DNA from: a virus
Taxonomy: Duplodnaviria > Caudoviricetes
DNA: 56,753 bases
Strand: one strand, 5' to 3'
IMG/VR virus record: IMGVR_UViG_3300032224_001432
Coordinates: 1-56,753 of that record
The notes below the pieces were generated by a model that saw only the letters and a list, made by a program, of their open reading frames with translations, made no database searches and was not told the DNA's origin. A program made the translations under genes and the position numbers. Positions 1,009-52,000 of the stretch are shown piece after piece (position 1 is the stretch's first letter; the number at the start of each line of letters is the position of its first letter).

Positions 1009-2325
1009 ATGGCGACTCAAATAGCTTTCTTAGAACCAGATCCGTTTGTTAATGGGATAAAAAATGCTCAGGCGTTTTCTCCCAGACTCTACGACGGGTC
1101 TTTTGATCCTAAAAATAGCTTTTATACCACGCGTAGCGTTGACATAGTTGCCTCATACAACTCTGTCTTAGATGGCGGAGATGTAGTCTATACTGCTGAG
1201 TTTAATAGGACAGTTACGGTATCTAGACCACTAAACGGCATAATGATTAAACCTAATACGCACGCCATAGTGCATATTAGGACGGCTGACGGAAAGACAA
1301 TAAAGGTGTTTAATCGTCTAGGAAGAGAGACGGAAGACGGTATCGCCTTTTCTAAGCCCCCGGACGGAACGAGTCCTAACGACGATGTGTGGACAGATTG
1401 GCTTCTACAGTCCGTACACGAAGAACGAGCCGAGAAAACACAGATTGTAGAAACGTTTGGAGAGACATACCTGTATGCGTTCGGTCAACGTCCGCGTGTC
1501 TTATCTTTTACCGGTATTTTGCTCAATACGTTGGACTATAATTGGCGTTCCATATTTTGGAAGAACTGGGACGAGTACTTTAGGGCTACTCAGCTGATAC
1601 GCGCTAATGCTCGTATGTATATTACTTTCGATGATGTAATAGTAGAGGGGTATCCTCTAAATGCGGCCGCTGACCAAACATCCGCCGACCCTCATGTTAT
1701 GTCTTTTAGTTTCTCATTTTTTGTAACTAACTACGTAAATTTAGTAGCACAAAACAATTTTAAGTCTATTACGGAAAATATAAATGAAGTGGTCAGAGCG
1801 GGACTATCCGCGGATTACGCGCAAGCGGGAATACTACGTGACCCATTCGGTAAAGAATTAGGAGACTCTAATGTTCCGATGAATGATTTGTCCACCGACA
1901 GAAAACCTCTCTTAGAAACAATATTTCCGTCCACTATTACGGACTTCTTGTACAAAGGTGACAGTATTCCTTCACAACTTTTGCGCCTAGGTTTAGGAAA
2001 TGACGTGTCCACGACAGTTGCTACTGGTATATTGTCTTTAACACAAGAAGGTTACGCAAAGACGCAGGGAATGTCTATGGTTAACACGCTACTAGATAGC
2101 GCTTTGACTAACTTATCCTTGTGGAAGCAGTTGGGGTACACAAAGCTGGAAAACAAGTTAGGCGCCAACGCTGGATCTATAAACACTTGGTTTGGGTTTT
2201 TAGCGGATGTAATTGCCAAGAACCAAAAAACTAATATACCGTCTTATTCTGCAGCGCAGGCTATCCAAGAAGGACTAACCAAAAAAGGGCTTACGATGTT
2301 TGGGATGTTTGCGATAGTAGGATGA
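1009..2325 (+). CDS. Putative tail-tube-fold baseplate protein (tube initiator-like)
   Basis: Beta-rich core QIVETFGETYLYAFGQRPRVLSFTGILL...IVEGY...MSFSFSFFV resembles tube-fold initiators; lies just upstream of the hub gene. Confidence 0.4.
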   Translation: MATQIAFLEPDPFVNGIKNAQAFSPRLYDGSFDPKNSFYTTRSVDIVASYNSVLDGGDVVYTAEFNRTVTVSRPLNGIMIKPNTHAIVHIRTADGKTIKVFNRLGRETEDGIAFSKPPDGTSPNDDVWTDWLLQSVHEERAEKTQIVETFGETYLYAFGQRPRVLSFTGILLNTLDYNWRSIFWKNWDEYFRATQLIRANARMYITFDDVIVEGYPLNAAADQTSADPHVMSFSFSFFVTNYVNLVAQNNFKSITENINEVVRAGLSADYAQAGILRDPFGKELGDSNVPMNDLSTDRKPLLETIFPSTITDFLYKGDSIPSQLLRLGLGNDVSTTVATGILSLTQEGYAKTQGMSMVNTLLDSALTNLSLWKQLGYTKLENKLGANAGSINTWFGFLADVIAKNQKTNIPSYSAAQAIQEGLTKKGLTMFGMFAIVG

Positions 2326-2540: not shown

Positions 2541-5500
2541 ATGTCTCAGGGTCGGCTCTTATCACTAAGATTGTTTCTGGAAGGCATCGAAGTAGCGTGT
2601 ACCTCGGCACAGGTATCTTGCGGAATAAACCAGCCCGCCAGTGCACAGATTGAAATACCTTACGCAGTCGAAGCAACCAACTTATTACCCAGAACGCTGG
2701 TACACCTATTTTACGCAGAAACTTCTTATTCGGCAGGTAAGGTAGACGCCCAAGGTAAAAACACGGCAGAACTGGATTACGGTGACGCTACCCAGTGGAA
2801 ACTACTCTTCGCTGGAGAGGTCATAAGCATCTCGTTCTCTAAAGCTGGCGGAGCTCGTGCCAATTACCTTATGTGCCAGGACTTCTCTAGCTATTGGCAA
2901 GCAGCGCAACTGTACTGGGGAACTGGTAATAACAGCGCAAATGCCTACAAGAAAGTGCTTTTCATGGGAGGCACACAACTCACTACTGGGGCGCAGAAGG
3001 TGCGCAATGGTAGTGTTTTAGCAGACCTGTTGGCAGCCAAGCCGACATCCATACCAACACTACCCGGAGTTCTAGGCGGTATTGTCTCGCTACTTGAGGC
3101 CGCGTCAGGAGTGTACAACACCGACAAGAAATACAGAGGCGTTAACGACTTCCTAACTCAAGCCGAGCTGCGCCTACACTTATCTAGGCTAATATACGCT
3201 CACCCAGAGGACGACACGTCTGAAACGTTCCTGCAGTACGGGGACCTACGCACTTACTTTAGACGTCTGACCGCCTCTGTTAGCAGCACGTCTTCATTTA
3301 TGGATATCGTCAATATATTCATGACCAAAATACACCATGTTTGGTCATCCATTGCTGCTCCTCCGTTCATAAAAAGCGGTATGCAAGTAAAAGTCGGGCA
3401 GTCGCTTCCGGCTAGCAAAGTAGCTGCTTTTGACAAAGAGCTGGGTGAGTGGGCACAGAAAATACAAAAGACTCGCGATCTGATAGGTACTACTCTAGAC
3501 GAGGCAGGACGTAATCCTAAAAAGGACGACAATGCCGGTAACTACGCTCTAGTAGAAAATCCTATTAAAGATGCTGGAAAACTAGAGGTAAAGTATAGAA
3601 CCGACAAGCACGAAGATTTCAATAAGAAGATGTCTGACATAGGTCTATACGACGGACAAGCGACTAAGTCTGACTCTGGGTTTGGCCCTGAATCCACAAA
3701 CCAGACAAAGATCGCTGCCTATTCTGAGAAGGTTACTAAAAAGCTGAATGCTATTAGACCTAATAAGACTAACCTATCTATAGCAGAGGGCCTACAGAAA
3801 GCGCGAGAGGCCATAACCGATCTAAGAAGAATTGCCACTTCTAGTGCCGTAGACGACGTTCAGGATGGTACAACCGTTTATACCAATCACACGTCGTCTC
3901 AACTAATAGAGGCCCAGAAGAAACTAGATGCGGCATTGGAACAGATCTCCAAAGGAACGTCTGTACCAATGGTGGTTAAGTATAAGACTGTTAACACTGA
4001 GTCGCGCTTGGCCATGTTTTTGTTTACGCCAGATCTATTTATGGTGCCTCCGCCTAAGTGTAATGTCTTATTTCCAGACCACTATGTCAGCGTCACATTC
4101 GGTAGAGCCTGGCTAAACGAACCGACCAGACTATGGCTGTTCGGGCAAACGCAAGCTGGTTCGGAGACATCTCAAGGTTATTTCTCTCCCAATACTTCTA
4201 TTCTTAGCGGACCAAAAGCCGTCGACGCTGCAACTGCAGTGTCGAATGGCGTGTCTTTTCTTATGAAACACGAGCTATTTACTGGACCCATACCGGCCCT
4301 AGAGGCTATTGGCGATATAGGCGTATTCAAGAAACTACACTCAAAGCAACTTAAGCAGAGTCAAGCTAAGCAGAAGGATGCTAAGAAAAAAGTCGCTGAT
4401 CCTAAAGGCTCCGAGTTCACTGGACAGGCACGGTACTCTCCACAAGAACATATGCAGAGAGCGGCTAACTACCTATTTTTTGCAAAGCGTTTCGCTACTA
4501 GGACTATGAACGTCAACGCAAAGTTCTGCCCACAGTTGGTGCCTGGGCTACCGATGCTACTATTAGATCCGCCCATAGCTGAGTCTGACCTACTGGCAGA
4601 TACTGTTAGTATCTTAAATGGTCAGCACTATGTAGGTCTTATTTCTCAGATACAACACACTGTACAAACCAACGGTGCCTCCACCGCAGTACAGTTGGTG
4701 AAGTGCCGATACCACGACGAAGGCCTGGATATATTTGAACAGAAGGAAGGCGACCTAAAGGAAAGAACCGGAAATCTAGACTACTCCAAGCGCGTTGTGA
4801 CTTACAAAAAGAAAGCCACCCCGCCGGGTAAGATAGGCAGAGTGGCTGAGAGCTATGAGTCTAAGCAGATGTTAGACGACATAGCCGCCCCAAATAGCCC
4901 TGGGGAAGGCTACGTAGAAAAGAGCGTAGAGTACACACAGGAGAATAGCACTACCAAAGGTAGTAACGCCGAGTATGCGTCTAAGACTACATTGTGGCGT
5001 AACTCTAAGACAGGAAAAGAAGTCACAGTTACAGTAAAACGTGTCGCCAACGCAGATTTTGCTTACGGCTACTCTCAACCAGCGCCGAGCGCACCGTTTA
5101 ATAGCCCTTATGTAACCGGTGGAAACCAGGGACCTATCGTAGTTCCTCAATTCGAGGTTACAACTTCCACGATTGAGAAGTCCGTAAAACAAAAGTCTCT
5201 GAACTTTACCTTTGAGGCAACCACAATACCTCCATGGTTCGCGGCAGTTTACCAGCCTGCTAACATAGGAACCATGTTTTATAAACAGTTTTTAGGGTGC
5301 GCGTCCGTCATTGACGACCCGCTGATAAAAGTAACGGGAGAAACCTTCAACGCTACAGATGAGACCTTTACGTATTCGATGGAAACCTCTAGTGGTACAC
5401 GCGACATAAAGCTGCGTACCGAGTACACAGTAAACTCCTACTCTACTACGCACGCGGCCAACCAGTTGGCGGAACTGTGGAAGAGTCTTAGAGACGTAGG

Positions 5501-5861
5501 AGCTAATTTACCTCTGTTCATAGACACCTACACGGAGAGAAACCACGCGACGATGTTAGATATTATGGGTGATATCAATCCGTACTTTCGGCCCAAGTTT
5601 TCAGCTTTGGGTGATAAGCCGTCCAAGATAGGTTTTCACGGAGAGGCATACGGCGAAGTAACTGACATGTTGAGCGCGATAACAGGGTCTCCTTTAGAGG
5701 AAGAGCCTACTATACCTAGAATGCCTTCTACATCCATAAAGCCGCCAACACTACGAAAGGTATCGCCGCAGGCCGATCCTAGAAAAGAACGCTACGTACG
5801 CGTCAAGAACTACAATTCCGAAATAGCAGCTGTTAGAACGTCTTCTACTGGAGGTAATTAA
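2541..5861 (+). CDS. Baseplate hub protein (T4 gp27 / P2 gpD / VgrG-like) with large insertions
   Basis: N-terminal LRLFLEGIEV...QPASAQIEIP and later LVPGLPMLLLD...YVGLISQIQHTV...TAVQLVKCR fit the hub pattern; GGAGG RBS. Confidence 0.6.
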   Translation: MSQGRLLSLRLFLEGIEVACTSAQVSCGINQPASAQIEIPYAVEATNLLPRTLVHLFYAETSYSAGKVDAQGKNTAELDYGDATQWKLLFAGEVISISFSKAGGARANYLMCQDFSSYWQAAQLYWGTGNNSANAYKKVLFMGGTQLTTGAQKVRNGSVLADLLAAKPTSIPTLPGVLGGIVSLLEAASGVYNTDKKYRGVNDFLTQAELRLHLSRLIYAHPEDDTSETFLQYGDLRTYFRRLTASVSSTSSFMDIVNIFMTKIHHVWSSIAAPPFIKSGMQVKVGQSLPASKVAAFDKELGEWAQKIQKTRDLIGTTLDEAGRNPKKDDNAGNYALVENPIKDAGKLEVKYRTDKHEDFNKKMSDIGLYDGQATKSDSGFGPESTNQTKIAAYSEKVTKKLNAIRPNKTNLSIAEGLQKAREAITDLRRIATSSAVDDVQDGTTVYTNHTSSQLIEAQKKLDAALEQISKGTSVPMVVKYKTVNTESRLAMFLFTPDLFMVPPPKCNVLFPDHYVSVTFGRAWLNEPTRLWLFGQTQAGSETSQGYFSPNTSILSGPKAVDAATAVSNGVSFLMKHELFTGPIPALEAIGDIGVFKKLHSKQLKQSQAKQKDAKKKVADPKGSEFTGQARYSPQEHMQRAANYLFFAKRFATRTMNVNAKFCPQLVPGLPMLLLDPPIAESDLLADTVSILNGQHYVGLISQIQHTVQTNGASTAVQLVKCRYHDEGLDIFEQKEGDLKERTGNLDYSKRVVTYKKKATPPGKIGRVAESYESKQMLDDIAAPNSPGEGYVEKSVEYTQENSTTKGSNAEYASKTTLWRNSKTGKEVTVTVKRVANADFAYGYSQPAPSAPFNSPYVTGGNQGPIVVPQFEVTTSTIEKSVKQKSLNFTFEATTIPPWFAAVYQPANIGTMFYKQFLGCASVIDDPLIKVTGETFNATDETFTYSMETSSGTRDIKLRTEYTVNSYSTTHAANQLAELWKSLRDVGANLPLFIDTYTERNHATMLDIMGDINPYFRPKFSALGDKPSKIGFHGEAYGEVTDMLSAITGSPLEEEPTIPRMPSTSIKPPTLRKVSPQADPRKERYVRVKNYNSEIAAVRTSSTGGN

Positions 5862-6046: not shown

Positions 6047-6064
6047 GTAAATGGTGGAGGGGCC

Positions 6065-7060
6065 GTGAGTAATCCTATTACTGAGTACCTTAAATACGCT
6101 GCTAAGAAAAAGGTTCATGTGCATGAGTACGTGCGCAAGACAAAAAGCGGCACCACTATTGTGGACGAACATGATCGCTACGAAGAAAGCGGTAGTGCGG
6201 ACGACGTTATACTAGCGTCCGAGCAACGACAAATATCACAGCCCGAAGTAGAGTTCGACGCTGAGGAAGAGGTAGACACCGCACCAGAGCCTGCCGAAGA
6301 AATACCGCTGAAAAGACGTGCCACCTTAGAGAAAGTGGAGAAGACGTCTATTGGTACTCTGTCTAAAGAGCAAGAACTAGAGCTGTGGAAGAAATGGAAA
6401 GACGGCGGTAAAAAGCCTGCAGACCTGGAACCTCTTCTACAGAGCTTCAAGCCTCTTATTGCTGAAAAAATGAAGGCGTATAAGGGCCGTGTAAAGCTGA
6501 TACCAGACGCGGCTATAGAAGCGGAATTCCAACTTCGCTTCGTTGAGGCCCTAGATACCTTCGACCCTTCTAAGGCGTCCTTGTCTACGTATATTTATAG
6601 ATACTTGGATAAGGCCAAACGTTTCATAGCTGAGAATCAAAATGTCGGTAGAATACCGGAAACTCGTATCTACCAGATAAAGAAGTACCAAACTGCTGTT
6701 AGCGACTTGAACGAGGAACTATCTAGACCACCTACCCCAGTAGAAATATCTAAGAAGCTGGGTTGGCCAGTAGCTGAAGTAGAACGTATGGATTCTGAGT
6801 TACGCAACGATTTGCTATCTCAGGGGTTTGAGGACGACCCATACGCACTTACTCCGTCTAAGTCTGAAGAAGTCCTACGGCTGTTTAAATACGAGTTGTC
6901 GGGGCAAGAACGTGTAGTTTATGAGTACCTTACTGGCTACGGAAAACCTAGACTGGAGTCCACGGGCGAAATAGCCAGAAAGATGGGTCTCCAGGATTAC
7001 CAAATAAGCCGTTATAGAGACTCTATACAGAAAAAGCTACGCAAGTATCTGGAGGAATAA
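6065..7060 (+). CDS. Phage sigma70-family sigma factor (regions 2-3-4) with N-terminal extension
   Basis: Region 2 (FVEALDTFDPSKASLSTYIYRY...GRIP), region 3 (LNEELSRPPTPVEISKKLG), region 4 HTH (LSGQERVV...STGEIARKMGL...ISR); GTG start with GGAGG RBS. Confidence 0.88.
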   Translation: MSNPITEYLKYAAKKKVHVHEYVRKTKSGTTIVDEHDRYEESGSADDVILASEQRQISQPEVEFDAEEEVDTAPEPAEEIPLKRRATLEKVEKTSIGTLSKEQELELWKKWKDGGKKPADLEPLLQSFKPLIAEKMKAYKGRVKLIPDAAIEAEFQLRFVEALDTFDPSKASLSTYIYRYLDKAKRFIAENQNVGRIPETRIYQIKKYQTAVSDLNEELSRPPTPVEISKKLGWPVAEVERMDSELRNDLLSQGFEDDPYALTPSKSEEVLRLFKYELSGQERVVYEYLTGYGKPRLESTGEIARKMGLQDYQISRYRDSIQKKLRKYLEE

Positions 7061-12527: not shown

Positions 12528-13397
12528 ATGCTAGACGTCCAGGCTATTTACTTACGAGATACTGTACCAGCGAAAATGGTTCGTGGCGTTCTGGCTTTGT
12601 CGTACGAGACGCCCACTGACGGCACACCGATAGAGGCCTTCGTAGATGGACAAAGCACCGTATTTCTGAATAATAAAAATGGAAAAACTTTTATAGTAGT
12701 TCCTCCTGTTGGCTCTAAACAGAGTGGTTGGTCTGTTGCTCTAAATATAGCCACTGCTGGCGGACTCATAGTTAGACGTGGTTTTGGCGCTGAAAGTAAA
12801 CCAGTGCTCGCACTGCTAATAGCGATAACCATAAAAAAGTCTGGTTCTATTGCCGAAGTGTGGGTCAACTCGCAGTCTAGAACGTTCACACAAACTAGTG
12901 GTGATACGGTTCTCTGCGAGCCACCGGACAACCTAACCTCTATAGACTCAATAGAAGTTCTTACTGATAGTCCCACAATAGGAACAGCTACCGGGTTTAC
13001 ATATGCACTACAAGACAACTTAAAAACCGTAGCCGGTGCGCAGAAACTGGTGTTTCAGTTTGTGAAGCTTCTCATGACTACGCAGGGCACTGACCTATTC
13101 CACCAAGCCGAAGGCGGTAATTTGCAAAAAATACCGGGCATGCCTTTAGAGCAGGACGGTGCTGGATCACTAGGCGCACAGATATTATTGGCTGTTAATA
13201 GAACTACTGCCTACATGATAGGCGGCCAGACATTAACATCCTTACCAGCCGAAGAGCGCCTAACTAAGGCAACCATAGGAAATCTAATCTACGATAGAAA
13301 CGACCCAACTAGCGTTACCGTTTCTTTACGGCTAGAGAACTTGGCCAGAGAATCAGCTGTATTCAATTTTTTGACTAAGACGGCCGGAGGAAACTAA
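12528..13397 (+). CDS. Baseplate wedge/sheath initiator with C-terminal gp25 (GPW)-like domain
   Basis: QKLVFQFVKLLMTTQGTDLFHQAEGGNL...EERL...VTVSLRL; immediately precedes the J-like gene. Confidence 0.65.
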   Translation: MLDVQAIYLRDTVPAKMVRGVLALSYETPTDGTPIEAFVDGQSTVFLNNKNGKTFIVVPPVGSKQSGWSVALNIATAGGLIVRRGFGAESKPVLALLIAITIKKSGSIAEVWVNSQSRTFTQTSGDTVLCEPPDNLTSIDSIEVLTDSPTIGTATGFTYALQDNLKTVAGAQKLVFQFVKLLMTTQGTDLFHQAEGGNLQKIPGMPLEQDGAGSLGAQILLAVNRTTAYMIGGQTLTSLPAEERLTKATIGNLIYDRNDPTSVTVSLRLENLARESAVFNFLTKTAGGN

Positions 13398-16300
13398 TGG
13401 CTACGATTTCAGCTCGCGCTGAATTAGCGCAGTTCATGGTCGAACGTCTAGCTGAGCTAGACCCTACTCTGGCTACAACCGCCGGATCTCGTATTTATAC
13501 GGTGGTAATAAATCCACTGCTGAACAGACTAGGAGAAGATCCATTAGCTACGGATATGGAGTCCTTCATCCTAGCACGTATGCGAGATGTCTATCCTGAT
13601 ATAGATATCAATTCGCCCGGGTCAGTAGTTAGAGATATTTTTGTAAATCCTCTGCTGCTCTTGATGACACCGCTGCGAGAGGAAATAGCACATCTACGTA
13701 GGCAACAGTCGCTAGCGGACTATACCACGTTGTCAGACGTTGAGATGGACGCTCTGCTGTCCAATGTCCTAGCGTCACGTAATACGGGTTCTTTTGCTTA
13801 CGGCACTATACGCGTGTTCTTTTCCACTACCCGTGTAGTTGGCGTAGACGCCTCTATCCTATTTACCACGTCTGCAGGACAGGTATTTGTAGCTGATGAG
13901 ACTCGCCAATTCTTACCATCAGAGATGGTACGCCAAGGAAATCTTTGGTACATAGAAGTTGCTGCGAGATCTCAAACCCCGTCTACTTCATCCAACGTAG
14001 CGGCGGGCACTCCGTTTACCGTCACAGGCATAGATGGAGTAGTTAGAGCCGCCAACCCCACGGCCATCTCCGGCGGCGTTGACTCAGAGACTAATACACA
14101 GTTTTACGAGAGAGCGCTTACTGCCATAACTGAGCGCTCTCTAAATACTGAACGCGGTATCCAATCGTTTATATTCGACAACTCCACCAACATTGTCTCT
14201 GTAGATGTTGTCGGATTTGGCGACCCTTTAATGCAGCGCGACATATTGACTGCCAACGCCCCGGTTCAAATTACTGGTGTACCCGGCGGTGTGCCGTTTC
14301 CAGCTATTACCGGTGTTCCGGTAACAGTAAATCCTAATCAGGTGCATATAGGCGGAGCCACTGACATCTACGTTAAGACTGGACAAACTGCGTCCAACAC
14401 TGCCGCCGGACTATACCTTACGTCCGACAACATATCTGGTACCGTAAAAACTATTTCCATCACAGCGGGTAGCAACGTAGTTACTTCAACAGGTCTGGGC
14501 ACTTTACTAGGATTCTCTATTCCAGGAGTGTCGGTAATACCTTCTGGTACGTACACTTTAGAGCTAGAGAACCTAGACGCTAGCGGCATATCGCCATTAG
14601 CCGTCAAGATAGTAGCTGCTACTGGCGCCAATACTGTACGGGTGGATTCTGCCTTCGCCGGATTCGCTGGAGTTATGTCTGGCGTGCGTGCCCGTTTACA
14701 AACTTATGTGGACGTAGAGCTCACCTACCCAAAGAGAGTGTTGCAGGACGGTTTGATAAACACCGTTGCGGGCTCTCCCACTGTTACGTTGGTTCCTCCT
14801 AGTGTAAATACGTTTGTAAACAACCCCGCTAGCGAAGAGATCTATTTAGAGATACTGGGCACTGCGCTAGCCGGTGAATATAAAATACAAACCAAATTAG
14901 CTAGCCAGCTTGTGCTGAGCCAGGTATTGGGTATTACGCTTAATAATGTGCAGTACCGTATCTATACCAAGCAAGACGCTAAGTTCAATTTACCTATCAC
15001 TCAGTTAAAGAGCGTAACGATAAGCGATGGCGGCACGGGGGTTAAAATACCCTATGCCGATCCTATACATATCTCAGTAGCTTCTCCAGCCTCTAGACTA
15101 GCCAATCCAATAACATACGCTGATTTTGGTGCCTGTTCCGTCACAGGGACAACGTTATCGTGTACAGCGCCTAACTCGTTTCTTGTTCATGGATTACAGC
15201 AGGGAGATCTGGTGTACATACCAGAGATGATCCCTCTAAGCCAGAGTCCTTACTTCTATATAGTCAATATTACAGGAGCGACAACTATACAGCTAGACCA
15301 CGCTGTAGTTGGTGGTCCCATCGCTACTACTCAACTACTAATAGGTAGTCCTACGGTTAGCAGCACCACGTTGACTTTTATGGACCCCACCTTCTTCGAG
15401 GCTAAGAACACCTCAGTAGTGTTTACGCACACTAACGCTGCGGGAGAGGTTTACGATTTTGAACCTTCTAAAAACGTGGAAGGTTATCTTTATGCCCCAA
15501 CTGCGCTATCCACAACGTTTGTTGTAGACCCTGCAGTCAATACTCTTGTCAGTGCCGGTACGCATGACTTGCATGACATGGGCGTAAAAACTGGAGATAT
15601 CTTTGAGATACAGAGCATAGTACTAGACTCAGGTACATTTAACGCGGCGGAAGACGCAAACGTAGACGTAGGCGGTGCTCCTAATGTAGGACTATCAGTT
15701 CTGAACGTTACAGTAGATGGAATCGTAAAGCCTGTATTTTTCTCACAGATCAATCCTAGCCTAACGTCAGTCGTCTCCACTCTAAATCAGCAGCTAGGAG
15801 CTGACTTATATGCTGAACGGATAACTGTAGGCGCTAATAAGCAGCTACGCATATTTTCTAGAAAACACATAGTTTTAGCCAACGGCGTCGGCTCACCGTT
15901 AACCCACTTAAAATTGACGGGCGCTACTGACAACAGCCCTGCGGGCGTGGGCGGTGAGTTTTCAATCAGTGCCGTAGCAGCCAACGGATCTTCCGTTACT
16001 CTGTCCTCAGGAATAGGAGCCAGTGGACTGTCCAAGTCTGTATTAGTAAGAATAAAAAGACTGGGGACGCAGTACATATACCCGGCTAATATGACCTTGC
16101 AGGACAATGGTCTGTATACGGCTACTATTCAAGTGGCGTCGAAAATACCTATTTCTTTTGGCAAAGTACTAGCGAACGCAGAATGCGTTGGCTCTGGGTA
16201 TGTCTCTAGATACGGATACACGTTCAACGTAGCAAACCCAGAGTACGCGTTTTCTATTGGAGAGCAGCTATTTCTGCGAGTTTACAACCTAGTATTTCCA

Positions 16301-16756
16301 TCGACGGCTGTGTCCTTAGAGGAAGCTATCGTTGTGCCTAAAACGACTGTGGCGGTAGAGTACGAAAATGCTCCGGAGATATCTACGTTGCAGCAGGCCA
16401 TGTTGCGTAGAAGTTTACGCGTAACATGCAATAACCCGCTGATTAAATACTACCAACCGGCGTACCCGGTCATAGGTATACGGTACCAGGGGTTAGAAGA
16501 AGTAGAGACCGTCCGCACTAGTCTTCTAAACCTGATTGTTCGGCTATACCCAAACAATCCTTTAGAAGTTTATGACGTTTTAGCTGAAATAGGCAAACTA
16601 CGTGTGGATACAGTAGTAGGTCCGCTAGAAGTAGGGTATCTTACGATTGACAAGAACAGAACGCTGCGCTTGTTCAAATCTTTCGACCAAGTATCTATAG
16701 CGAGATCGTTCCATATTATGGGCGAACTAGACTACGTAGTGGTAACACGAGGGTAA
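13397..16756 (+). CDS. Baseplate wedge protein J-like (T4 gp6-like) with inserted beta domains
   Basis: PGSVVRDIF...MDALLSNVLASR...AYGTIRVFF...NPTAISGGVDSETNTQFYERA, the baseplate-J signature. Confidence 0.8.
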   Translation: MATISARAELAQFMVERLAELDPTLATTAGSRIYTVVINPLLNRLGEDPLATDMESFILARMRDVYPDIDINSPGSVVRDIFVNPLLLLMTPLREEIAHLRRQQSLADYTTLSDVEMDALLSNVLASRNTGSFAYGTIRVFFSTTRVVGVDASILFTTSAGQVFVADETRQFLPSEMVRQGNLWYIEVAARSQTPSTSSNVAAGTPFTVTGIDGVVRAANPTAISGGVDSETNTQFYERALTAITERSLNTERGIQSFIFDNSTNIVSVDVVGFGDPLMQRDILTANAPVQITGVPGGVPFPAITGVPVTVNPNQVHIGGATDIYVKTGQTASNTAAGLYLTSDNISGTVKTISITAGSNVVTSTGLGTLLGFSIPGVSVIPSGTYTLELENLDASGISPLAVKIVAATGANTVRVDSAFAGFAGVMSGVRARLQTYVDVELTYPKRVLQDGLINTVAGSPTVTLVPPSVNTFVNNPASEEIYLEILGTALAGEYKIQTKLASQLVLSQVLGITLNNVQYRIYTKQDAKFNLPITQLKSVTISDGGTGVKIPYADPIHISVASPASRLANPITYADFGACSVTGTTLSCTAPNSFLVHGLQQGDLVYIPEMIPLSQSPYFYIVNITGATTIQLDHAVVGGPIATTQLLIGSPTVSSTTLTFMDPTFFEAKNTSVVFTHTNAAGEVYDFEPSKNVEGYLYAPTALSTTFVVDPAVNTLVSAGTHDLHDMGVKTGDIFEIQSIVLDSGTFNAAEDANVDVGGAPNVGLSVLNVTVDGIVKPVFFSQINPSLTSVVSTLNQQLGADLYAERITVGANKQLRIFSRKHIVLANGVGSPLTHLKLTGATDNSPAGVGGEFSISAVAANGSSVTLSSGIGASGLSKSVLVRIKRLGTQYIYPANMTLQDNGLYTATIQVASKIPISFGKVLANAECVGSGYVSRYGYTFNVANPEYAFSIGEQLFLRVYNLVFPSTAVSLEEAIVVPKTTVAVEYENAPEISTLQQAMLRRSLRVTCNNPLIKYYQPAYPVIGIRYQGLEEVETVRTSLLNLIVRLYPNNPLEVYDVLAEIGKLRVDTVVGPLEVGYLTIDKNRTLRLFKSFDQVSIARSFHIMGELDYVVVTRG

Positions 16757-27665: not shown

Positions 27666-27765
27666 GGTTCACCTCTAGGTCAGGGATGAATTAGGTCAGC
27701 ACTTCCTTCATCATTACTCCATGTAATGTAGAGGAGGCTTAGTTACCTTTTCCCTGGACATAATC

Positions 27766-27796
27766 CTTATACCCTATTAGGGGTAATAAATTGCAG
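27766..27796 (-). promoter_or_regulatory. Candidate phage promoter CTGCAA-N20-ATAAG
   Basis: Minus strand CTGCAA tttattacccctaatagggt ATAAG; same boxes and spacing at 45968-45998. Confidence 0.6.
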
Positions 27797-43972: not shown

Positions 43973-45799
43973 ATGGCTGAGACACAGTCGATTACAACTA
44001 CACTATCTAGAGCTAAGACTGTCGGTAGACCGGAGAACTACTATCCGTCCCCGTTCTTTGATCTTGCGCAGACTTATATGCCTGCGAACATCAAAGACAC
44101 CTTTGAGTGGTGTGCCTACTATTACCAAACCAATCCGATAATAAACGGCGTAGTAACAAAGTTATCCTCGTACGCCATAACAGATCTTTTGTATGGTGAC
44201 CCCGTCGAGTCCTCCACTTTTAAGAAGTTATTCGAGGGACCTCTCAATCTAAGAACTTTCTTAGTGGAATTTGGCCTTGACCGTAACTGCTTTGGCAATG
44301 CCTTTGCTTCAGTAGTGTTTCCGTTCAAAAAGATCCTAGGATGCCGCAGCTGCGGAAAACTCATAGAGGCTACGAAGGCTGACTACACGTTCAGATCTGG
44401 TAAGTTCATCCTCAAGTGCGCTAACTGCAAGTTTGAGGGAGAGGCTAGGGCTAAAGATGAGACTATACCCGCGGCCAACCAGATAAGGTTAAAGCGTTGG
44501 TCCCCTAGACAAATCACTATACGCACCAACGAGAGCACCGGCGAATGCCGTTATTTTTATTCTCTATCTCGATCAGCACGTAACGAGATATTACTAGGTA
44601 ATAGAAAGACGCTTGAGTCTACGCCACAAGCGTTCATCGATGCCGTCCACGGAAACAAGCTGATTGAGCTAGATCCTACCAAGTTGTTCCATTCACGTAG
44701 ACCTAGTATCTCACGTGATATTACGGACGCTGGCTGGGGCACTCCCCTCATTCTTCCAGTACTAAAAGACATCTTCCTTCTACAAGTTCTTAAGAAGTCC
44801 CAGGAAGTTGTCGCTATGGAGTACATCCTGCCTTTCCGCAGTTTGTATCCAGAAGTTCGTGCCGACGGTAATAACGTCTATGGTCAGGTAAATCTGACCG
44901 CATGGCAAAACAGCGTGAAGCGCGAAATTACCCAGTGGAAGAAAGACCCTGGGCACATCGCCGTATTCCCTGTACCGATAGGACAACAAGTTATGGGCGG
45001 ACAAGGCCGCTCAATGCTTCTGCACCAAGAAGTGCGTGTCTACAGCGATCAAATAATCGCCGGCATGGGCGTACCTACCGGTTTCTACTACGGTGAGGCT
45101 CTATACTCTGGCGCTAGCGTAAACCTACGCGCTATGGAAAATGAGTTCCTAGCGTACCGTCAAGATATGCAGCACCTAGTAGAGTTCTTCGTTAAGAGTA
45201 TCGCGTATGGCCTGAGCATCCAGCCGATAGACGTCAAGTTCCGCGAGTTTAAGATGGCGGACGACCTAGCGCGTGCTGGTATGGAATTCAACATGGCCAA
45301 CGCTGGACGCCTAAGCTGGCGTACGTTCCTAAGCTCACGTGGTTTCGACTACGACCACGAGAACAAGCTAATCATAAAAGAGCTTTCGGACGCAGCGGAG
45401 AAAAACAAGATCAATGCTAAGGCGCAAGCAGCTGTTCAAGCCATGATGGGTCAGGAGCAGGCTAAATCGCAAAGCGCTACACAGCGGCTAATGGCAAGAC
45501 TACAGGGAGCGGCTCCACAAGCAGCCCCTCCTCCGGGTCAGCCAGGACAGCCACCCGAAGCAGGACCTCCACAGCAGGGAGCAACGCAATCTCCACAGCA
45601 GGAGGCTTCTGGCATAGCGCAGCAACTGGCCCAGATGCCAGAAGTACAGCGCTACCAGACTTTAGCCAGAATGCGACAAGAGAATCCTGATCTGTACCAG
45701 ATGGTAAACACGATGTTGCAGGGTGGCGGTCCACAACCCGGGCAGCAGCTGCCGGAGCAGCTGCCACCTCGGGCCGAAGGATTTAATCGTCAGCTATAA
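43973..45799 (+). CDS. Portal protein with inserted Zn ribbon and Gln/Pro-rich tail
   Basis: YYQTNPIINGVVTKL, DRNCFGNAF, WGTPLI, IIAGMGVP...SGASVNL portal-type motifs. Confidence 0.75.
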   Translation: MAETQSITTTLSRAKTVGRPENYYPSPFFDLAQTYMPANIKDTFEWCAYYYQTNPIINGVVTKLSSYAITDLLYGDPVESSTFKKLFEGPLNLRTFLVEFGLDRNCFGNAFASVVFPFKKILGCRSCGKLIEATKADYTFRSGKFILKCANCKFEGEARAKDETIPAANQIRLKRWSPRQITIRTNESTGECRYFYSLSRSARNEILLGNRKTLESTPQAFIDAVHGNKLIELDPTKLFHSRRPSISRDITDAGWGTPLILPVLKDIFLLQVLKKSQEVVAMEYILPFRSLYPEVRADGNNVYGQVNLTAWQNSVKREITQWKKDPGHIAVFPVPIGQQVMGGQGRSMLLHQEVRVYSDQIIAGMGVPTGFYYGEALYSGASVNLRAMENEFLAYRQDMQHLVEFFVKSIAYGLSIQPIDVKFREFKMADDLARAGMEFNMANAGRLSWRTFLSSRGFDYDHENKLIIKELSDAAEKNKINAKAQAAVQAMMGQEQAKSQSATQRLMARLQGAAPQAAPPPGQPGQPPEAGPPQQGATQSPQQEASGIAQQLAQMPEVQRYQTLARMRQENPDLYQMVNTMLQGGGPQPGQQLPEQLPPRAEGFNRQL

Positions 45800-46010: not shown

Positions 46011-49000
46011 ATGGCCAATAGCTTGCTCAACCCCGAGGGCGCGATGAAATCGCTCGAAGACGGGACGATCAACGCAGTCAGTTCGTTCTTCCCAGTAGAA
46101 GGCAAGAAGCACAAACTGGTAGCCACAAATATCTACGCAGGTAGCGACGTCGATCACGAAGATGTTGCTAGCCAGAAGAAAGCCAAGTTGCGCGGTCGCA
46201 CGTGGTCTGTGGGCGTATACGCTGACATGGACATGATCGACAAAGAGACTGGTAAGAAGATAGACAGCGTCAAGGGGATGAAGCTACTCAATCTCCCTAA
46301 GCTTACTAAGCGCTACTCCTTCATAGTTGACGGCGTTGAGTACCAAGCCGACAACCAATGGCGCCTTAAATCTGGTGTATATTCCAGACAGCGTGCTAAC
46401 GGTGAACTAGAAGCACAGTTCAACTTGGCGGAAGGTCGCGGCTTTCGCATGGACTTCTACCCAGCCAAACGCCAGTTCCTGCTGCGCTATGGTACGGCTA
46501 ATATCCAATTGCTTCCTGTACTACGAGCCCTCGGAGTTAAAGACTCAGAGATGCGTCAGTCATGGGGCGACAAGGTATTCGACGCCGTAGCCGCCAACAA
46601 GTCTCGGGGAGACGTACAGAAACTAGCCAAAGCGCTAGACTCTAGATTCTCTGGTGACGACAACGCGGCAGCTACACTTATAAAGGACAAGTACAGCCAA
46701 TCTGTATTACTGCCAGATACAACCAAGCTCACTCTTGGGAAAGAATACAATAAGGTCGAACCAGACACGCTTCTACGCGCATCTACTAAACTACTGAATA
46801 TTAACCGTGGTACGGAAGAGACTGACAACCGTGATTCACTACGATTCAAAGAACTGTGGACTATCGAGGATCACATTCCAGAGAGAATTATTAACTCTGG
46901 TAAACGCGCACAGTTTAAAATAAAGAACAACCTAGATAGAAAAGACAACATACGCGACGTAGTAACTACTGACATCTTTAATGTGCCAGTAAAGGCGTAC
47001 TTTACTACTACGTCACTGGCGCAGATGTCTCCGCAGCTAAACCCTGTTGAGATGGCCGCCGGTTTCTTACGTACCACCATTATGGGACAAGGCGCTATCA
47101 GTAGTGATCAGGCTATCTCTCTAGATGCCAAGATGATCGACCCAAGCATGTTGGGTGTTGTGGACCCAGTCCATACACCAGAAGGCAACGCAGGTATCAG
47201 TACGCACTTGACGCTAGGAACTGGCAAGCGCGGCAAAGATCCGACCATAAAGGTGTACGACACTAAGTCTAAGAAGCTTGTTGAGAAAACACCTACAGAG
47301 CTAGCCGCAGGCACTCTTGCTTTCCCAGATCAGTACGAGGAAAACAAAGACGGTCCTCCACACCCTAGACATGATCTGGTAACCGTCATACCAAAGGGCG
47401 GTGGTGACCCAACACAGGTCAAGCCTAGCGAAGTCGACTACATCATGCGTTCGCCTAAATCGATGTTCTCGGTTGTGGCTAACCTAGTTCCTTTCTTACC
47501 ATCGGACCAAGCCAACAGAGCTGGTATGGCGACCCGCCACATTAGTCAGGCTATCTCGCTAAAAGAGCGCCAAGCTCCTCTAGTGCAAGTAGCTGCCGCC
47601 ACGGGTAATCCTAAGATAGACACTTGGGAGAAAATCGTAGGTAAGACGGCGTCTAGCCAAGCCCCTGTAGACGGAACTATCTCTGAAGTAACTAATGAGA
47701 AAATAGTTATTCAGGGAGAAGACAAGAAGAAGTACGAAGTCGGTCTATACGATAACTATCCTCTTAACGAGAAGAAGTCGTACATAACCAGCCTTCCTCT
47801 TGTTAAAGCCGGCGATAAGGTAAAGAAAGACGATATTATCGCTGATACCAACTTCACCGATAAGGGCACTCTGGCACTGGGTAGAAACCTAAAGGTAGCC
47901 TACCTAGACTGGCAGGGAGCTACGTTTGAGGACGCTATCGTTGTAAGCGAGAAGGCTGCCAAAGACTTGACCAGTCTTCACCAGAGCAAGCCACGTGTCT
48001 ACTTAGACAAGGGTATGTCTCTTGGTCTATCCAGATTCAGAGCTAACTTCCCCGGTGTTGTAACCGACGAGAACGCAAAGAAGTTAGACGAAAATGGCGT
48101 TATCAAGAAAGGACAAGTTGTAAAGCCTGGCGACGTAATAATGACTGTCCTCAAAAAGACAGAGCCGTCGCCAGAACAGGTAATGTTAAAGGGCATCCAC
48201 AAAGCTCTAGCTAAGCCGTACAAAAACTCATCTGTTGTATGGGATTCCGACTACAGCGGCACTGTCACAGACGTAGCGGTTAACGGAAATGAAGTAGTAG
48301 CTTACGTCACCACCGAGGAGCCTCTTGAGATAGCTGACAAACTATCAAATAGACATGGCGGTAAGGGCGTCGTAAGTATGGTAGTTCCTACTGAGGAAAT
48401 GCCTAAGAACGCCGCTGGTGAGCCCATAGATATCATCGTGTCTCCGATGGGTGTCCCCGGTCGTATCAACATCGGTCAGGTATTAGAGACCATGTTAGGC
48501 AAGGTAGCCCATGAGAAAGGCACTACCTTTGCCGTAGACAACTTCCAGACAGAGAACGGTAAGAAGATCGTTCAGGTGGAAGGACACTACAGAACAGTTA
48601 AGGGCGAGGGCGGTCAGACCAAAGAAGTATGGGTCAAGCCGCACACGCGAGAGCTAGGCTACCAAGACATAGTCAAAGAAGTATTAGCTCAGAATAAGGT
48701 GGACGATACTGAGGAACTGTTTGACCCGCAGACCAAGAAGAGCTTCGGCAAGGTTCTAACGGGCTTTCAGTATTTCATCAAGCTTACCCACCAAGTAGAC
48801 AAGAAGATGGCTGGTCGTAGCCACGGCTACGGTAATGACTACGACGCGACACTAATACCCAAGGGTGGTGGTGATGCTGGAGCCCAGAGATATGGCGAGC
48901 TAGGTCTTTATGCCATGTTGGCGCACGGTGCTACTAACGAACTGCGCGATACAATGACGTACAAGTCTGACAAGGCGCAGCAAGATGTGTGGACAGCCAT

Positions 49001-52000
49001 ACAAACAGGCGAACCGCTGCCAGCGCCTAAAAACGCTTTTGCCTATGATAAATTCGTAGCGTATTTGCGTTCGGTAGGTCTCGATATCGAGAAAGACGGA
49101 AACGAGATGCGTCTCGTTCCGTTTACCGACGATGACATCAAGAAGGTAAGCAATGGCGCTCTTACAGACGCGTCTAAGGTCTTGCGTGGCAAAGACCTAA
49201 GACCAGAGCCGGGCGGTCTATTTGACGAGAAAATAACTGGTGGACCTGGCGGTAAGAATTTCGCACACATACCACTGGAAGAGCGTATCCCTAATCCAGT
49301 ATTCGAGCGTGCGATTATGTCGCTGCTCGGTGTCACTGGTAAAGAGTACGACTCTATTATTAGCGGGGATATGAAGATAGATGGCAAGACAGGTCCGTCT
49401 GCCATAGTCGACGCACTAGCTAAGATTAACGTGGACAGCGAACTAAAAGATGCCAAAGAAGATCTAAAAACTGCCAGAAGAAGCAACTTAGACGCCGCAT
49501 ACAAGCGTGTTAAGTATTTGACGGCAATAAAGAACATAGGCAAGAGCGCTGATAAAGCATACAGCCTAAGCGCCATTCCCGTCATTCCTCCAGTGTTCAG
49601 ACCTATCACGTCTATGGAGGGCGGCGATCTAAATGTTGATGGTGTCAACCTTCTATATAGAGATGTGGCGATGCTCAACGAGCAGTACGCATCTAGCAAG
49701 AAGGTTCTGCCTGAATCGGCACTAGCCCCTATACGTAAAGATACGTACGAAGCGGTTAGCTCTCTAATAGGCATAGACTCCAGACAAGCCGGTGTCACAG
49801 CCAATGGAGAAGTGAAGCCTCCAGGCATATTAACCATTTTGTCAGGGCGCAGCTCTCCAAAAGAAAGCTACGTCCACACGAAGCTGATGGACCGCCGTCA
49901 GGATCTAACAGGTCGTTCTGTTATTACTCCTGACCAGACTCTAGGCCTCGATCAACTTGGTTTGCCCAAAGACATTGCTTACGAGATATACCGTCCGTTT
50001 GCTGTCTCTGAGCTAACCAAAATGGGTTACACACCACTGGCAGCTAGAGAGGAGCTAGCTAAGCGCACTCCTCTTGCAGAGCGCGCCTTAGAGATCGCAA
50101 CGCAGAAGCGTCCTGTGTTCTTTAAGCGCGACCCCGTACTACATAAGTTCGGTATCATGGCCTTCTACCCAAAGCTGCACGAAGGCAAGAGCATAAAGAT
50201 CCACCCTCTAGTTACGGGCGGCTTTAATGCTGACTTCGATGGCGACACCATGGCGGTATTCGTACCAGTGTCATCACAAGCTGTTGACGACGCCAAGAAG
50301 ATGTTGCCATCAAACAACCTATTCAACTTCGGCTCTGGTAAAGTAGAGTACCAGCCAAGCCTAGGTGGACAGTTGGGACTGTATCTATCCACACAGTTCG
50401 GTAAGGACAGTGGAAAGGTGTTCTCCTCAATGAAAGACGTAGTAGATGCGTCTAACAGAGGAGAAATTGCGCCAACCGACGTCATAAAGGTCGATGGCAA
50501 AAAGACGACTGCAGGAAGAATACAAATCTATGCGGCGCTGCCAGATAACGTACGTACTGACGACATGCTTACTGACCCAGGGTTTACTCTGGAGAAGAAG
50601 AACCTTCAGAAGGTGATGAAGTCGGTAGCCACTAAAGCACCGGCAGAGTTTGCCGTTACGATGGATAAGCTGAAGAACATTGGCTTTAGACATCAGCACG
50701 ATACTGGCTTCTCGTACTCTGCCGCCGACTTCGATACCTTGTCGGAACTACGTGATAGCGTACTAAAGCAGGCTAACGCCAAGGCCAAGTTGGTACACAA
50801 CTCGTCTCTGTCACAAGCTGACAAAGATAAGAAACTTGTGCAGATCTACACAGACGCCACTGTAGAGATGACCAACAAGGCTAAGCCTCTGCTGGACAAG
50901 AGCGGTAGCAAGCTGTACGCCATGAACAAGGCAGGCACCAAGCCAGCGTGGGAACAGGTTCAGCAAATGATCCTGGCCCCAATGCTACTGGCAAATGCTC
51001 GCGGTCGTGTCATTCCAGCCCCCGTTACTCGTTCTTACGCAGAGGGTCTAGATACTGCCGGTTACTGGACCGCAAGCTCAGGTGCCAGAAAGGGACTCAT
51101 AAACAAGGTCCAGTCTGTACAGAAACCCGGTGTTTTATCTAAGCAAATAATAAACGCCACTGTACCGTACTCTGTTACGGAGAACGATTGCGGAACTACA
51201 AAGGCTGTGGCTTTGGACATAGACGAGCCGGACGTAATTGGCCGCGTTCTGCCTAAGGACGTGACTGCTGGTGGGCACACCTACAAGGCCGGTACGGTTC
51301 TTACTACCAACGTGGTAGATAAGATGAAGCAGGCCAAAGTTAGTAGAGTCGCAGTGCGCTCCGTGCTTAAGTGCCAAGCCAAGCAAGGTCTATGCCAGAA
51401 ATGCTTTGGTGAGGGCGTCGATGGCAAGTTCCCAGACATAGGCACAAACCTAGGTGTTCTGGCGGGACAGTCCATCGGTGAACGCGGCACGCAGCTAGCC
51501 ATGAAAGAGTTCCACCTAGGCGGCTTGGCTGGAACTCAAAGCCGTGTTGCCTCTGGTGTAGACAGAGTTTTCGAGCTTCTCAAGATGCCTGAAACGCTGC
51601 CCAACGCAGCCACGCTGTCTACAGTTAGTGGTAAGGTGCAAGCTGTAAACAAGAGTCCTCTAGGCGGTTTTGATATTAAGGTCGCTGGAGAAACCCACTA
51701 CGTTCCAGGTGGTAGAGAGCCTGCTGTAAAGGCAGGAGATGACGTAGAGAAGGGAGCTCGTCTGTCAACAGGCACCATCGATCCTCGTGAACTGATGGAC
51801 CTGACAGGCACAGACCAGGTGCAGCGCTACATGACGGATGAGTTACATGGCGCGTACGCATCCGAAGGTATCAAGCGTAGAAACGCTGAGGTCGTAGTAA
51901 AGGCTATGACTAATCTGTCCAGAGTTGTAGACCCAGGAGATTCTGACGAACTTATTCGCGGTGATATGGTGTCTACCAATTACGCGGAGGCGTTGAACAG

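Follow-up and report, generated by a model that had tools for sequence, protein, structure and literature searches.

A divergent sigma-70-family factor and the fused RNA polymerase of an uncultured tailed phage as a likely pair

The sigma factor gene and its neighbours

The window, by which we mean the whole stretch of 56,753 nucleotides that was analysed, is a fragment (about 32%) of an uncultured-phage genome of roughly 180 kb, and the phage's own gene content was therefore argued from relatives. An open reading frame at 6065..7060 (plus strand) encodes a protein of 331 aa. Its GTG start codon lies 4 nt downstream of a GGAGG ribosome-binding site in the sequence (6056..6060, plus strand). 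The product is a real sigma-70-family protein. It was matched by PHROG 351 ('RNA polymerase sigma factor', E 1.1e-16) and, above the cut-off of 25.3, by Pfam Sigma70_r3 (E 1.3e-5, 25.6 bits). The Sigma70_r2 match (E 0.005, 17 bits) stayed under the cut-off of 24, and NCBIfam RpoD/SigBFG/ECF-superfamily models matched with scores far under their curated cut-offs. A phmmer search of the PDB returned 30 sigma chains with E <= 0.01; residues about 100-240 align with sigma2-3 of SigA and RpoS (E down to 7e-8). AlphaFold modelled helical sigma2, sigma3 and sigma4 domains, with pLDDT > 90 for sigma2. The Foldseek PDB matches listed for this model were all sigma factors or sigma-containing complexes or models (probability 1.00, best E 1.3e-8). 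Their low TM-scores are due to a different domain arrangement.

The features described in this section all lie on the plus strand. The protein begins with a helix (residues 4-13) and a His/Arg beta-hairpin module (residues 17-38; together 6074..6178), followed by an acidic linker of variable length, which is predicted to be disordered (residues 42-96, 6188..6352). The sigma2 domain (residues 101-192, 6365..6640) contains a divergent region 2.2 (residues 146-168, 6500-6568) and a region 2.3 that reads TYIYRY. Sigma3 (residues 199-252, 6659..6820) was recovered by Pfam above the cut-off, by phmmer and by AlphaFold. Sigma4 (residues 266-330, 6860..7054) carries a putative recognition helix starting DYQISR. 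A Pfam r4 search of the ORF gave no match for this domain. The TIGR02937 and TIGR02980 alignments, both with scores under the cut-offs, reach residues 328-329, and the stretch 266-330 forms four helices in the AlphaFold model. Sigma-S, SigB/F/G and FliA share this sigma2-sigma3-sigma4 architecture without region 1.1, and the best sequence and fold matches were alternative sigmas of this type and primary sigmas. As in bacterial sigmas, the RIP motif is well preserved, and so is region 3.0. In contrast to the bacterial alternative sigmas, DLIQEGNxGL of region 2.2 is replaced, the WW pair of region 2.3 reads RY, and the proposed partner is the phage enzyme.

A preliminary description, made from the sequence alone, had read AIEAEF for DLIQEG in region 2.2, RY for WW in region 2.3 and QDYQISR for TRERIRQ in region 4.2. 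All three strings are in place (residues 150-155, 179-180 and 310-316). The change in region 2.3 was recovered by HMMER, which pairs STYIYRYLDKA with STYATWWIRQA. In region 2.2 the divergence stood but the register did not: HMMER sets DAAIEAEFQLRFVEALDTFD against SigA DLIQEG--NMGLIKAVEKFD, shifted by two residues. In the phmmer alignment DAAIEAEFQL lies opposite DLIQEG--NMGL, and the conserved core-binding motif is lost; in either register at most two of the six DLIQEG residues are retained. For region 4.2 the correspondence to TRERIRQ derives from model coverage (TIGR02937, residues 146-329) and a predicted helix (residues 311-330) rather than from a residue-level tool alignment. Among 27 sigma relatives, region 2.2 is nearly invariant as IPDxAIEAEFQLRFV, and both the region 2.2 consensus and the Trp pair of region 2.3 are absent clade-wide.

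The gene was also said to lie among tail genes, and this is borne out by its neighbours. It is flanked by homologues of phage Arash gp6 (1009..2325), gp12 (12528..13397) and gp13, all three of which were detected in Arash virions; the gp13 homologue is a Baseplate J-like protein with a Baseplate_J domain (13397..16756). A 1106-aa protein (2541..5861) is weakly similar to gene 0009 of Vibrio phage D69, which holds the position of Arash gp8, a virion-detected cell wall hydrolase (PMC10585845). The gene order is that of Arash: large virion protein, small ORF, sigma and baseplate genes, and elsewhere a portal gene before the polymerase gene. The portal-protein homologue (Arash gp204; 43973..45799) precedes the polymerase gene, an order also found in Arash and D69.

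Arash Gp10 is homologous to the sigma studied here (33% identity over residues 121-268, E 3e-16) and Arash Gp206/Gp216 to its fused polymerase. Further close known relatives are the Vibrio phages D69, D148 and D181. At 234 aa, the Arash sigma is without the N-terminal helix, the hairpin and the acidic linker, all three of which are present here. In Arash the polymerase comes in two pieces, the first with beta and the N-terminal half of beta' and the second with the C-terminal half of beta', and neither has the hairpin insertion of the fused chain described below. Arash also has a second Sigma70_r2 match elsewhere. The identity of about 29-33%, the missing N-terminal module and the second match in Arash speak against the interpretation favoured below.

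The fused polymerase and its clamp helices

A single-chain fused beta-beta' RNA polymerase of 2076 aa is encoded at 46011..52241 (plus strand, as are all its features). Domains of both subunits were detected by Pfam (Rpb2_6 3.3e-56, Rpb1_2 3.6e-26, Rpb1_5 8.8e-20). The three aspartates (D1408, D1410, D1412) of the catalytic NADFDGD motif (50226..50246) are invariant in the family alignment. An equivalent of the flap-tip helix, the usual docking site of sigma4, is partly conserved at about residues 721-734 (48171..48212). Within the beta part, about 35 aa (residues 851-885, 48561..48665) form an inserted His/Arg hairpin. Its four strands are of low confidence in an AlphaFold model of residues 761-1030 made with 7 sequences (mean pLDDT 43.7). 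Residues 1020-1135 are free of Cys, and a by-eye comparison of the printed sequences showed no segment for the beta' zinc-binding domain. Five complete relatives gave neither an alpha match (PF01000, PF01193) nor, above the cut-off, one for omega (PF01192); all 14 control genomes were positive.

The clamp helices (beta' coiled-coil) correspond to residues 1212-1254 (49644..49770). Alignment with E. coli beta', for which the rpoC reference sequence was taken from NC_000913.3, placed L1222 at R275, I1241 at E295 and A1248 at A302, with agreement between phmmer, MAFFT and hmmalign. Y1246 lies opposite Q300. The positions of R275 and E295 had been read by eye as Leu and Ile, and profile alignment upheld this call; both interface residues are replaced in the alignments. 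R275 and E295 are both kept in five aligned bacterial beta'/gamma sequences (a cyanobacterial gamma, B. subtilis, S. aureus, Thermus and E. coli). In contrast, the R275 site is non-basic and the E295 site non-acidic in 15/15 related phage polymerases. In a set of 45 fused phage polymerases, Arg was found once at the R275 site; the E295 site never carries Glu and is Leu in 23, and Tyr occupies the Q300 site in 42. The clamp helices are about 26% identical to those of E. coli (author's count on the alignment), no worse than the remaining protein. Thus, specific residues have changed, and not the region as a whole decayed.

In E. coli, the substitutions R275Q, E295K and A302D impair holoenzyme formation (PMC8321222, citing earlier work). 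According to the same source, endosymbiont polymerases are also substituted at these beta' sites, and substitution alone is therefore no proof of orthogonality. The changes at the clamp are compatible with a private interface and do not prove one. Taken with region 2.2, the alignments support the view that both sides of the canonical sigma2.2/clamp-helix contact are non-bacterial yet conserved. Co-folding of sigma residues 96-250 with polymerase residues 1130-1330, carried out with separate alignments and without controls, gave scores of 0.06 and 0.01, with the mark at 0.32, and points neither way.

Co-inheritance, a common hairpin and candidate promoters

The polymerase was present in 15 of the 19 records with a relative of the sigma, and the remaining four are fragments estimated to be 19-56% complete. 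Both genes are present in all six virus records that are at least 90% complete and in the cultured phages Arash and D69. A clade profile found a single sigma in the complete relative G007 and a single one in the window, and searches with Pfam Sigma70_r2 revealed no second sigma in five complete marine relatives. Pairwise identity matrices of the sigma and of the clamp region were compared for 13 non-identical genomes. The Mantel r was 0.98, a value reached by none of 5000 permutations, and the proposed co-divergence of sigma and polymerase is thereby supported as congruent divergence across homologous genomes. These data support a long-standing pair that was inherited together. It should be kept in mind that genes passed down vertically in one genome will in any case co-occur and have matching trees.

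The sigma family is phage-borne: when 185,579 species genomes were scanned, the only relative to turn up lay on a 174-kb MAG contig. Metagenomes yielded 148 sigma relatives (E <= 1e-5), and the contigs of several measure about 170-200 kb. For the polymerase, the 150 top-scoring representatives all had E <= 1.2e-82, and most exceed 2000 aa, the length of a fused chain.

The N-terminal hairpin of the sigma and the hairpin insertion of the polymerase, each roughly 30 residues, match one another. In hhalign the two profiles were aligned with a probability of 93.9 (E 1.5e-7, score 29.8), while the best score of 30 column-shuffled controls was 13.9. In searches of the ORFs of G007 (969) and of the window (543), each hairpin had the other as its best non-self match, and no third carrier was found in these sets. 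Both hairpins are present in 8/8 genomes of one sub-clade and neither in 7/7 genomes outside it. Being confined to one clade, this co-occurrence counts as a single evolutionary event. Related insertions are also carried by the family members P0160, P0166 and P0216. A capsid-targeting leader common to other proteins was considered as well and was rejected, since neither a profile of residues 1-45 nor two NPxxxFLKYA regular expressions picked up another carrier in the window or in G007.

Upstream of the polymerase gene, the 13-mer TTCTTATACCTAA is exact in the loci of 7/7 relatives, two of which are apparently identical, and among 48 loci it occurs at this site only. The window copy is degenerate. 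Allowing up to three mismatches, 28 matches were counted in the window versus 17 expected; in G007 a 10-mer with at most one mismatch gave 22 matches versus 8-17 in shuffles. The 13-mer was rejected as a general phage promoter. The orientation of the motif is ambiguous because the sites sit between divergent genes, and its TATAAG core is sigma-70-like and could be read by a host-type sigma, too. We regard the GGTATAAGAAC-type motif as a candidate promoter motif, a lead rather than a promoter model. For the proposal that the sigma reads promoters of its own, this candidate was all that the searches produced. A scan of 40000-47000 with the sigma-70 consensus found 2 promoter-like sites versus 7.9 expected and is uninformative.

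A probable sigma for the phage polymerase

Most likely, the sigma serves the phage's own polymerase. With a probability of about 0.6, we consider it the promoter-specificity subunit of this enzyme, in a pair that is made late, is probably packaged and allows a host-independent start. The enzyme would be a holoenzyme of only two polypeptides: a fused beta-beta' chain without detectable alpha, omega and beta' zinc-binding domain, and a sigma in which a helix, the His/Arg hairpin and the acidic disordered linker would precede sigma2-sigma3-sigma4. Docking would follow the bacterial pattern, with sigma2 at the clamp helices and sigma4 at the flap tip, and the contact surface may have been rebuilt on both the sigma and the clamp side with mostly hydrophobic residues. 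Late synthesis of both proteins would be expected from their gene positions, with the sigma gene among the baseplate/tail genes and the polymerase gene behind that of the portal protein. Both would probably enter the particle and reach the next cell along with the DNA, where the delivered holoenzyme would begin transcription independently of the host enzyme. Of the private sigma-core pair proposed in the preliminary description, the long-standing pairing, the conserved and apparently rebuilt contact on both sides and the common hairpin module speak in favor; physical binding, packaging and host independence in the phage studied are what we infer.

Packaging is suggested by analogy with Arash, in whose virions mass spectrometry placed the polymerase Gp206 at the top of all proteins (128 unique peptides, 3516 spectra), followed here by the polymerase piece Gp216 (40 peptides, 1210 spectra) and the sigma Gp10 (24 peptides, 467 spectra, 100% coverage), while the primase Gp183 gave 2 peptides (PMC10585845). 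By our own rough arithmetic, which is not that of the Arash authors, this amounts to about 2.3, 2.0 and 2.0 spectra per residue for Gp206, Gp216 and Gp10 (ORFs of about 1525, 606 and 234 aa). These data, the position of the sigma gene among homologues of Arash virion proteins and that of the polymerase gene beside the portal homologue suggest that the sigma probably travels in the virion in the phage studied, as had been proposed. The proposal shares a caveat raised by the Arash authors, that abundant enzymes may merely persist in the preparation; their list of 116 proteins includes ribonucleotide reductases and helicases (PMC10585845). If the Arash signal were such carry-over, the sigma could work with the phage enzyme within the infected cell, on middle or late genes, with the host polymerase reading the early ones. 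The metabolic enzymes on that list, the lack of a common capsid-targeting tag in the window and G007 and the TATAAG core of the candidate promoters would fit. However, 128, 40 and 24 unique peptides for polymerase and sigma stand against 2 for a replication enzyme, and both genes lie within virion modules even in distant relatives. We consider an unpackaged partner unlikely.

T4 gp55 and SPO1 gp28/gp34 are sigma-family proteins that time phage genes via the host core polymerase, and their phages are not known to have a polymerase of their own. A sigma of this classical kind would bind the host core and switch it to phage middle or late promoters, leaving the phage polymerase to another factor or none. 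Sigma homologues are indeed known from polymerase-less jumbo phages, where they likely act on the host polymerase (2026 review PMC13282480; PMC7824862). In addition, Carin-5, YerA41, Va2 and RHph_TM30, which have beta/beta' genes, gave no Sigma70_r2 or r3 match, so such polymerases can work without a recognizable sigma, and the position in a late module would also suit a late-gene sigma. Against this, the sigma never occurs without the polymerase in complete genomes, its main core-binding element, region 2.2, lacks the bacterial consensus clade-wide, the hairpin module is common to sigma and phage polymerase only, the family is absent from the bacterial genomes scanned apart from one MAG contig, and Arash particles gave many sigma peptides (PMC10585845). 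Host redirection thus appears distinctly improbable. Loading of one sigma onto both enzymes, phage polymerase and host core, which would couple the two to the same promoters, is least probable of all: the flap-tip helix and the sigma2-3-4 architecture are conventional and a residual affinity for the host core is conceivable, but region 2.2 and the clamp residues are divergent and positive evidence is lacking.

A more far-reaching form of the preferred reading, in which the sigma is the partner of the phage polymerase, is possible but tentative. It would be a minimal orthogonal two-polypeptide system with a hydrophobic sigma2/clamp surface, in which the matching hairpins act as a private latch or a joint loading signal, and which is packaged and injected as a unit and exchanges no subunits with the host.

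The packaged virion polymerase of phage N4 is a T7-like single-subunit enzyme. Comparable to the proposed pair are the jumbo-phage non-virion polymerases of multisubunit type, which lack alpha and omega and use phage specificity subunits, phiKZ gp68 and AR9 gp226 (PMC13282480, PMC9209446). As described in the review, gp226 does not resemble sigma at the sequence level and gp68 is sigma-like by structure (PMC13282480), while the protein studied here is recognizable as sigma-70 by sequence; the jumbo-phage non-virion polymerases consist of four or five polypeptides instead of a single chain. The phiKZ virion polymerase is made late, packaged and injected for early genes, a logic like that proposed here, although the review's account of phiKZ-type enzymes reports no sigma-family subunit (PMC13282480). 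Deep-branching beta and beta' homologues have also been described in metagenomic tailed phages as mReC (Weinheimer and Aylward 2020, PMC7481178), in whose main text the word 'sigma' is absent. The window, too, combines beta and beta' homologues with tailed-phage genes, and the likeness is one of gene content.

As covered by reviews, one group of large phages brings a multisubunit polymerase without a sigma homologue, and another brings a sigma for the host enzyme without a polymerase (PMC13282480, PMC7824862). The clade studied here has both, co-inherited across Salmonella, Vibrio and uncultured metagenome phages. In its account of the two proteins, the Arash paper reports detection only and no mechanism (PMC10585845). 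Apart from that detection, our literature search found no paper on a sigma serving the phage-encoded polymerase of this clade, and the mechanism of the pair is not described in the literature searched. The family is common in metagenomes. If the proposed reading is true, the pair would be the simplest known sigma-dependent polymerase, with two chains and no assembly platform, and a case of a true sigma delivered by a virus particle. It would then offer a tractable model for the rewiring of sigma-core recognition and a candidate orthogonal expression system.

The sigma factor among the virion genes

The window is a linear IMG/VR record of 56,753 bases with an estimated completeness of ~32%, and the source phage is therefore roughly 180 kb in size. 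Virion genes fill 1-27 kb on the plus strand, among them a Baseplate_J protein (13397-16756, plus) and very large fibre-like proteins. The minus strand of 27.8-42.4 kb carries a replication block encoding a family A DNA polymerase, a primase, a DnaB-like helicase, a RecA-like protein, a Cas4-like nuclease and a DEAD/ResIII helicase. In the plus-strand block at 42.3-56.7 kb, a portal-protein homologue (43973-45799, plus; E 3.5e-49 to gp204 of the cultured Salmonella phage Arash) lies upstream of a 2076-aa polymerase ORF (46011-52241), an arrangement common to the window, Arash (gp204, gp205, gp206) and the Vibrio phage D69. A large ORF at 53367-56753 leaves the window at its end. It has a Por_Secre_tail match at residues 452-488, which is not C-terminal and scores 30.1 bits (cut-off 27) for the whole protein (E 6e-7), with no single stretch passing alone.

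The ORF at 6065-7060 is a real sigma factor. It encodes 331 aa from a GTG start, with GGAGG 4 nt upstream. The protein passes Pfam Sigma70_r3 (25.6 bits, cut-off 25.3), stays below the cut-off for Sigma70_r2 (17 bits against 24) and has no Pfam r4 match along its 331 aa. It matches PHROG 351 'RNA polymerase sigma factor' (E 1.1e-16), 30 sigma chains in the PDB by phmmer, and many NCBIfam sigma models, every one of these scoring far under its curated cut-off. In the AlphaFold model (mean pLDDT 77) the chain opens with a short helix spanning 4-13 and four short strands within 17-38, passes through an acidic, disordered stretch (42-96) and then forms three confidently predicted helical domains (101-192, 199-252, 266-330). 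When this model was searched against the PDB with Foldseek, every listed match contained a sigma factor, alone or as part of a complex or model.

The preliminary description had read three altered motifs in this protein, and the strings are indeed found at residues 150-155, 179-180 and 310-316. In region 2.2, HMMER places DAAIEAEFQLRFVEALDTFD opposite DLIQEG--NMGLIKAVEKFD of SigA, a register other than the one first proposed; in either register the region departs from the bacterial consensus. It is almost invariant in 27 sigma relatives, and in more distant ones it varies and never regains the bacterial motif. The exchange of WW for RY holds, as STYIYRYLDKA is set opposite SigA STYATWWIRQA. 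The region 4.2 string is present at 310-316, but its equivalence to the TRERIRQ helix is positional only. Together with the family and fold matches and the clamp-helix residues described below, these alignments bear out a sigma among tail genes with changed interface residues.

The clamp helices of the phage polymerase

In the 2076-aa ORF, beta and beta' are fused into one chain (Rpb2_6, 3.3e-56; Rpb1_2, 3.6e-26), which matches E. coli rpoB (1.5e-78) and rpoC (7.8e-93) and contains the catalytic NADFDGD motif. Three alignment methods agree in placing L1222, I1241 and A1248 at E. coli R275, E295 and A302, so the by-eye assignment of Leu and Ile was correct; the reference was rpoC from NC_000913.3, in which positions 275, 295 and 302 were checked to be R, E and A. 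Earlier work cited in the excerpted text of PMC8321222 reports that R275Q, E295K and A302D impair holoenzyme formation in E. coli.

R275 and E295 are retained in all five bacterial sequences aligned (cyanobacterial gamma, B. subtilis, S. aureus, Thermus and E. coli), and 15 of 15 phage polymerases from sigma-carrying genomes lack both. Among 45 fused polymerases, each at most 43% identical to that of the window, Arg occupies the R275 site in 1, the E295 site has Leu in 23 and Glu in none, and Tyr stands at the Q300 site in 42. The alignments indicate that the clamp-helix surface has moved to a new state that is conserved and more hydrophobic. However, similarity to E. coli is about equal in the clamp helices, taken as a whole, and in the remainder of the polymerase, and excerpts of PMC8321222 describe substitutions at the same beta' sites in endosymbiont polymerases too. 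The flap-tip helix is present and partially conserved. Polymerase residues 1020-1135 (49068-49415) contain no cysteines, with only a few residues between FGP-like and GHIEL-like motifs. By eye, on the printed sequences, this enzyme appears to have lost the beta' zinc-binding domain.

Co-inheritance of sigma and polymerase

The sigma family counts 148 members at E <= 1e-5 in a large protein collection, several of them from 170-200 kb contigs. Scanning IMG/VR yielded 17 loci which, with Arash and D69, make 19 records. The polymerase is present in 15 of these, including all 6 that are at least 90% complete; the four without it are 19-56% complete. In closer, uncultured relatives the polymerase occupies one uninterrupted frame of ~2060-2100 aa. 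In Arash, D69 and the related record G016 (L022-L029, L041, L047) it is split past about residue 1500 into one piece with beta and the N-terminal half of beta' and a second, encoded elsewhere, with the C-terminal half. In the Vibrio phages D181 and D148 the region of the polymerase match bears a homing endonuclease annotation.

Co-divergence of the two proteins, as had been proposed, was confirmed: across 13 genomes, two exact duplicates having been removed, identity matrices of sigma and clamp region correlate with r 0.98, a value reached in 0 of 5000 permutations. This correlation demonstrates long co-inheritance rather than contact. With a clade profile, a single sigma is detected in the window and likewise in the complete relative G007, and five complete marine relatives contain no second Sigma70_r2 match. 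Arash has one in a 380-aa open frame apart from gp10 (OQ632216.1, 120974-121165; E 1.1e-11). Models for alpha and omega gave nothing over cut-off in five complete relatives (G002, G003, G004, G007, G010), with control genomes positive in 14 of 14 cases; the fused chain and sigma may therefore form the whole enzyme. Four other phages carrying beta/beta' had no Sigma70_r2 or r3 match. Among 185,579 species genomes a single sigma relative was found (L063); its 174-kb contig belongs to a MAG labelled Desulfatibacillum and, judging by size, is probably a mis-binned phage genome.

Sigma and polymerase also have a His/Arg beta-hairpin module in common. The sigma N-terminus (6074-6178) follows the pattern V-x-V-x-x-H-x-R, a Gly-containing loop, then V-x-x-H-x-R, and a similar insertion of ~35 residues interrupts the polymerase within its beta part (residues 851-885; 48561-48665). 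Their profiles align in hhalign with a probability of 93.9 (E 1.5e-7) and a score of 29.8, against a top score of 13.9 in 30 column-shuffled controls. They are reciprocal best non-self matches (E 0.0017 to 0.63) among 969 ORFs of G007 and 543 of the window, and these ORFs include no third carrier. A loose regular expression matched window proteins 4 times against 0.8 expected, 3 of the 4 in sigma or polymerase. Both proteins carry the hairpin in the window and in G001-G007, and both lack it in G008-G010, G012, G016, Arash and D69 (G005/G006 and G008/G009 are duplicates); this co-occurrence is confined to a single clade and hence counts as one event. The insertion is missing from the majority of the 45 fused polymerases; related insertions occur in P0160, P0166 and P0216. 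As guesses, the hairpins could be a private tether between sigma and polymerase or a joint loading signal.

A candidate promoter and probable virion packaging

A 13-mer, TTCTTATACCTAA, sits ~40 nt upstream of the polymerase start and is found without a mismatch in each of 7 relatives' loci (L030-L036), two of which appear identical; the window copy (within 45925-46010) is degenerate. In G007 (L049-L057) the 10-mer, with at most one mismatch allowed, has 22 occurrences where shuffles give 8-17; 10 of the 22 lie in the ~6% of the genome left non-coding by crude gene calls. On the opposite strand, GGTATAAGAAC is found 29-48 nt upstream of the divergent gene's ribosome-binding site at 4 of 4 exact intergenic sites, often beside a short inverted repeat, and window copies at 27764-27773 and 45966-45975 agree with this orientation. 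The motif may be a promoter, and is offered as a lead only; its TATAAG core does not discriminate between phage and host sigma. A strong hairpin (27826-27855, minus; stem of ~10 pairs, then GTTTTCT) downstream of the gene ending at 27869 resembles a terminator, and its T-rich tail overlaps one TTCT-type motif copy.

According to excerpts of reviews (PMC13282480, PMC7824862), sigma homologues are absent from jumbo-phage polymerases, and polymerase-less phages bring sigmas for the host enzyme. No resemblance to sigma exists in the sequence of the AR9 sigma-like subunit, and the phiKZ one is termed sigma-like for structural reasons (excerpts of PMC13282480, PMC9209446). Sigma is never mentioned in the main text of the mReC paper, and our literature search found no mechanistic account of this sigma-polymerase pair.

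Arash and D69 share the local gene order, in which a large virion protein and a small ORF come before sigma and the baseplate genes after it, and window ORFs match Arash gp6, gp12 and gp13. The only experimental evidence for packaging is the LC-MS analysis of Arash particles, whose sigma is ~29-33% identical to that of the window. According to the portions of that study available (PMC10585845), 116 proteins were detected in the particles, with the polymerase subunit Gp206 at the top of all (128 unique peptides, 3516 spectra), followed here by Gp216 (40 peptides, 1210 spectra), the helicase Gp217 (38, 1148) and the sigma Gp10 (24, 467); the primase gave 2 peptides. The authors caution that abundant enzymes could have been carried over in the preparation. 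By rough arithmetic on these figures, spectra per residue are alike for the three polymerase and sigma polypeptides. The best supported reading, to which we give a probability of about 0.6, is a co-diverged, dedicated sigma-polymerase pair that is probably packaged in the virion.
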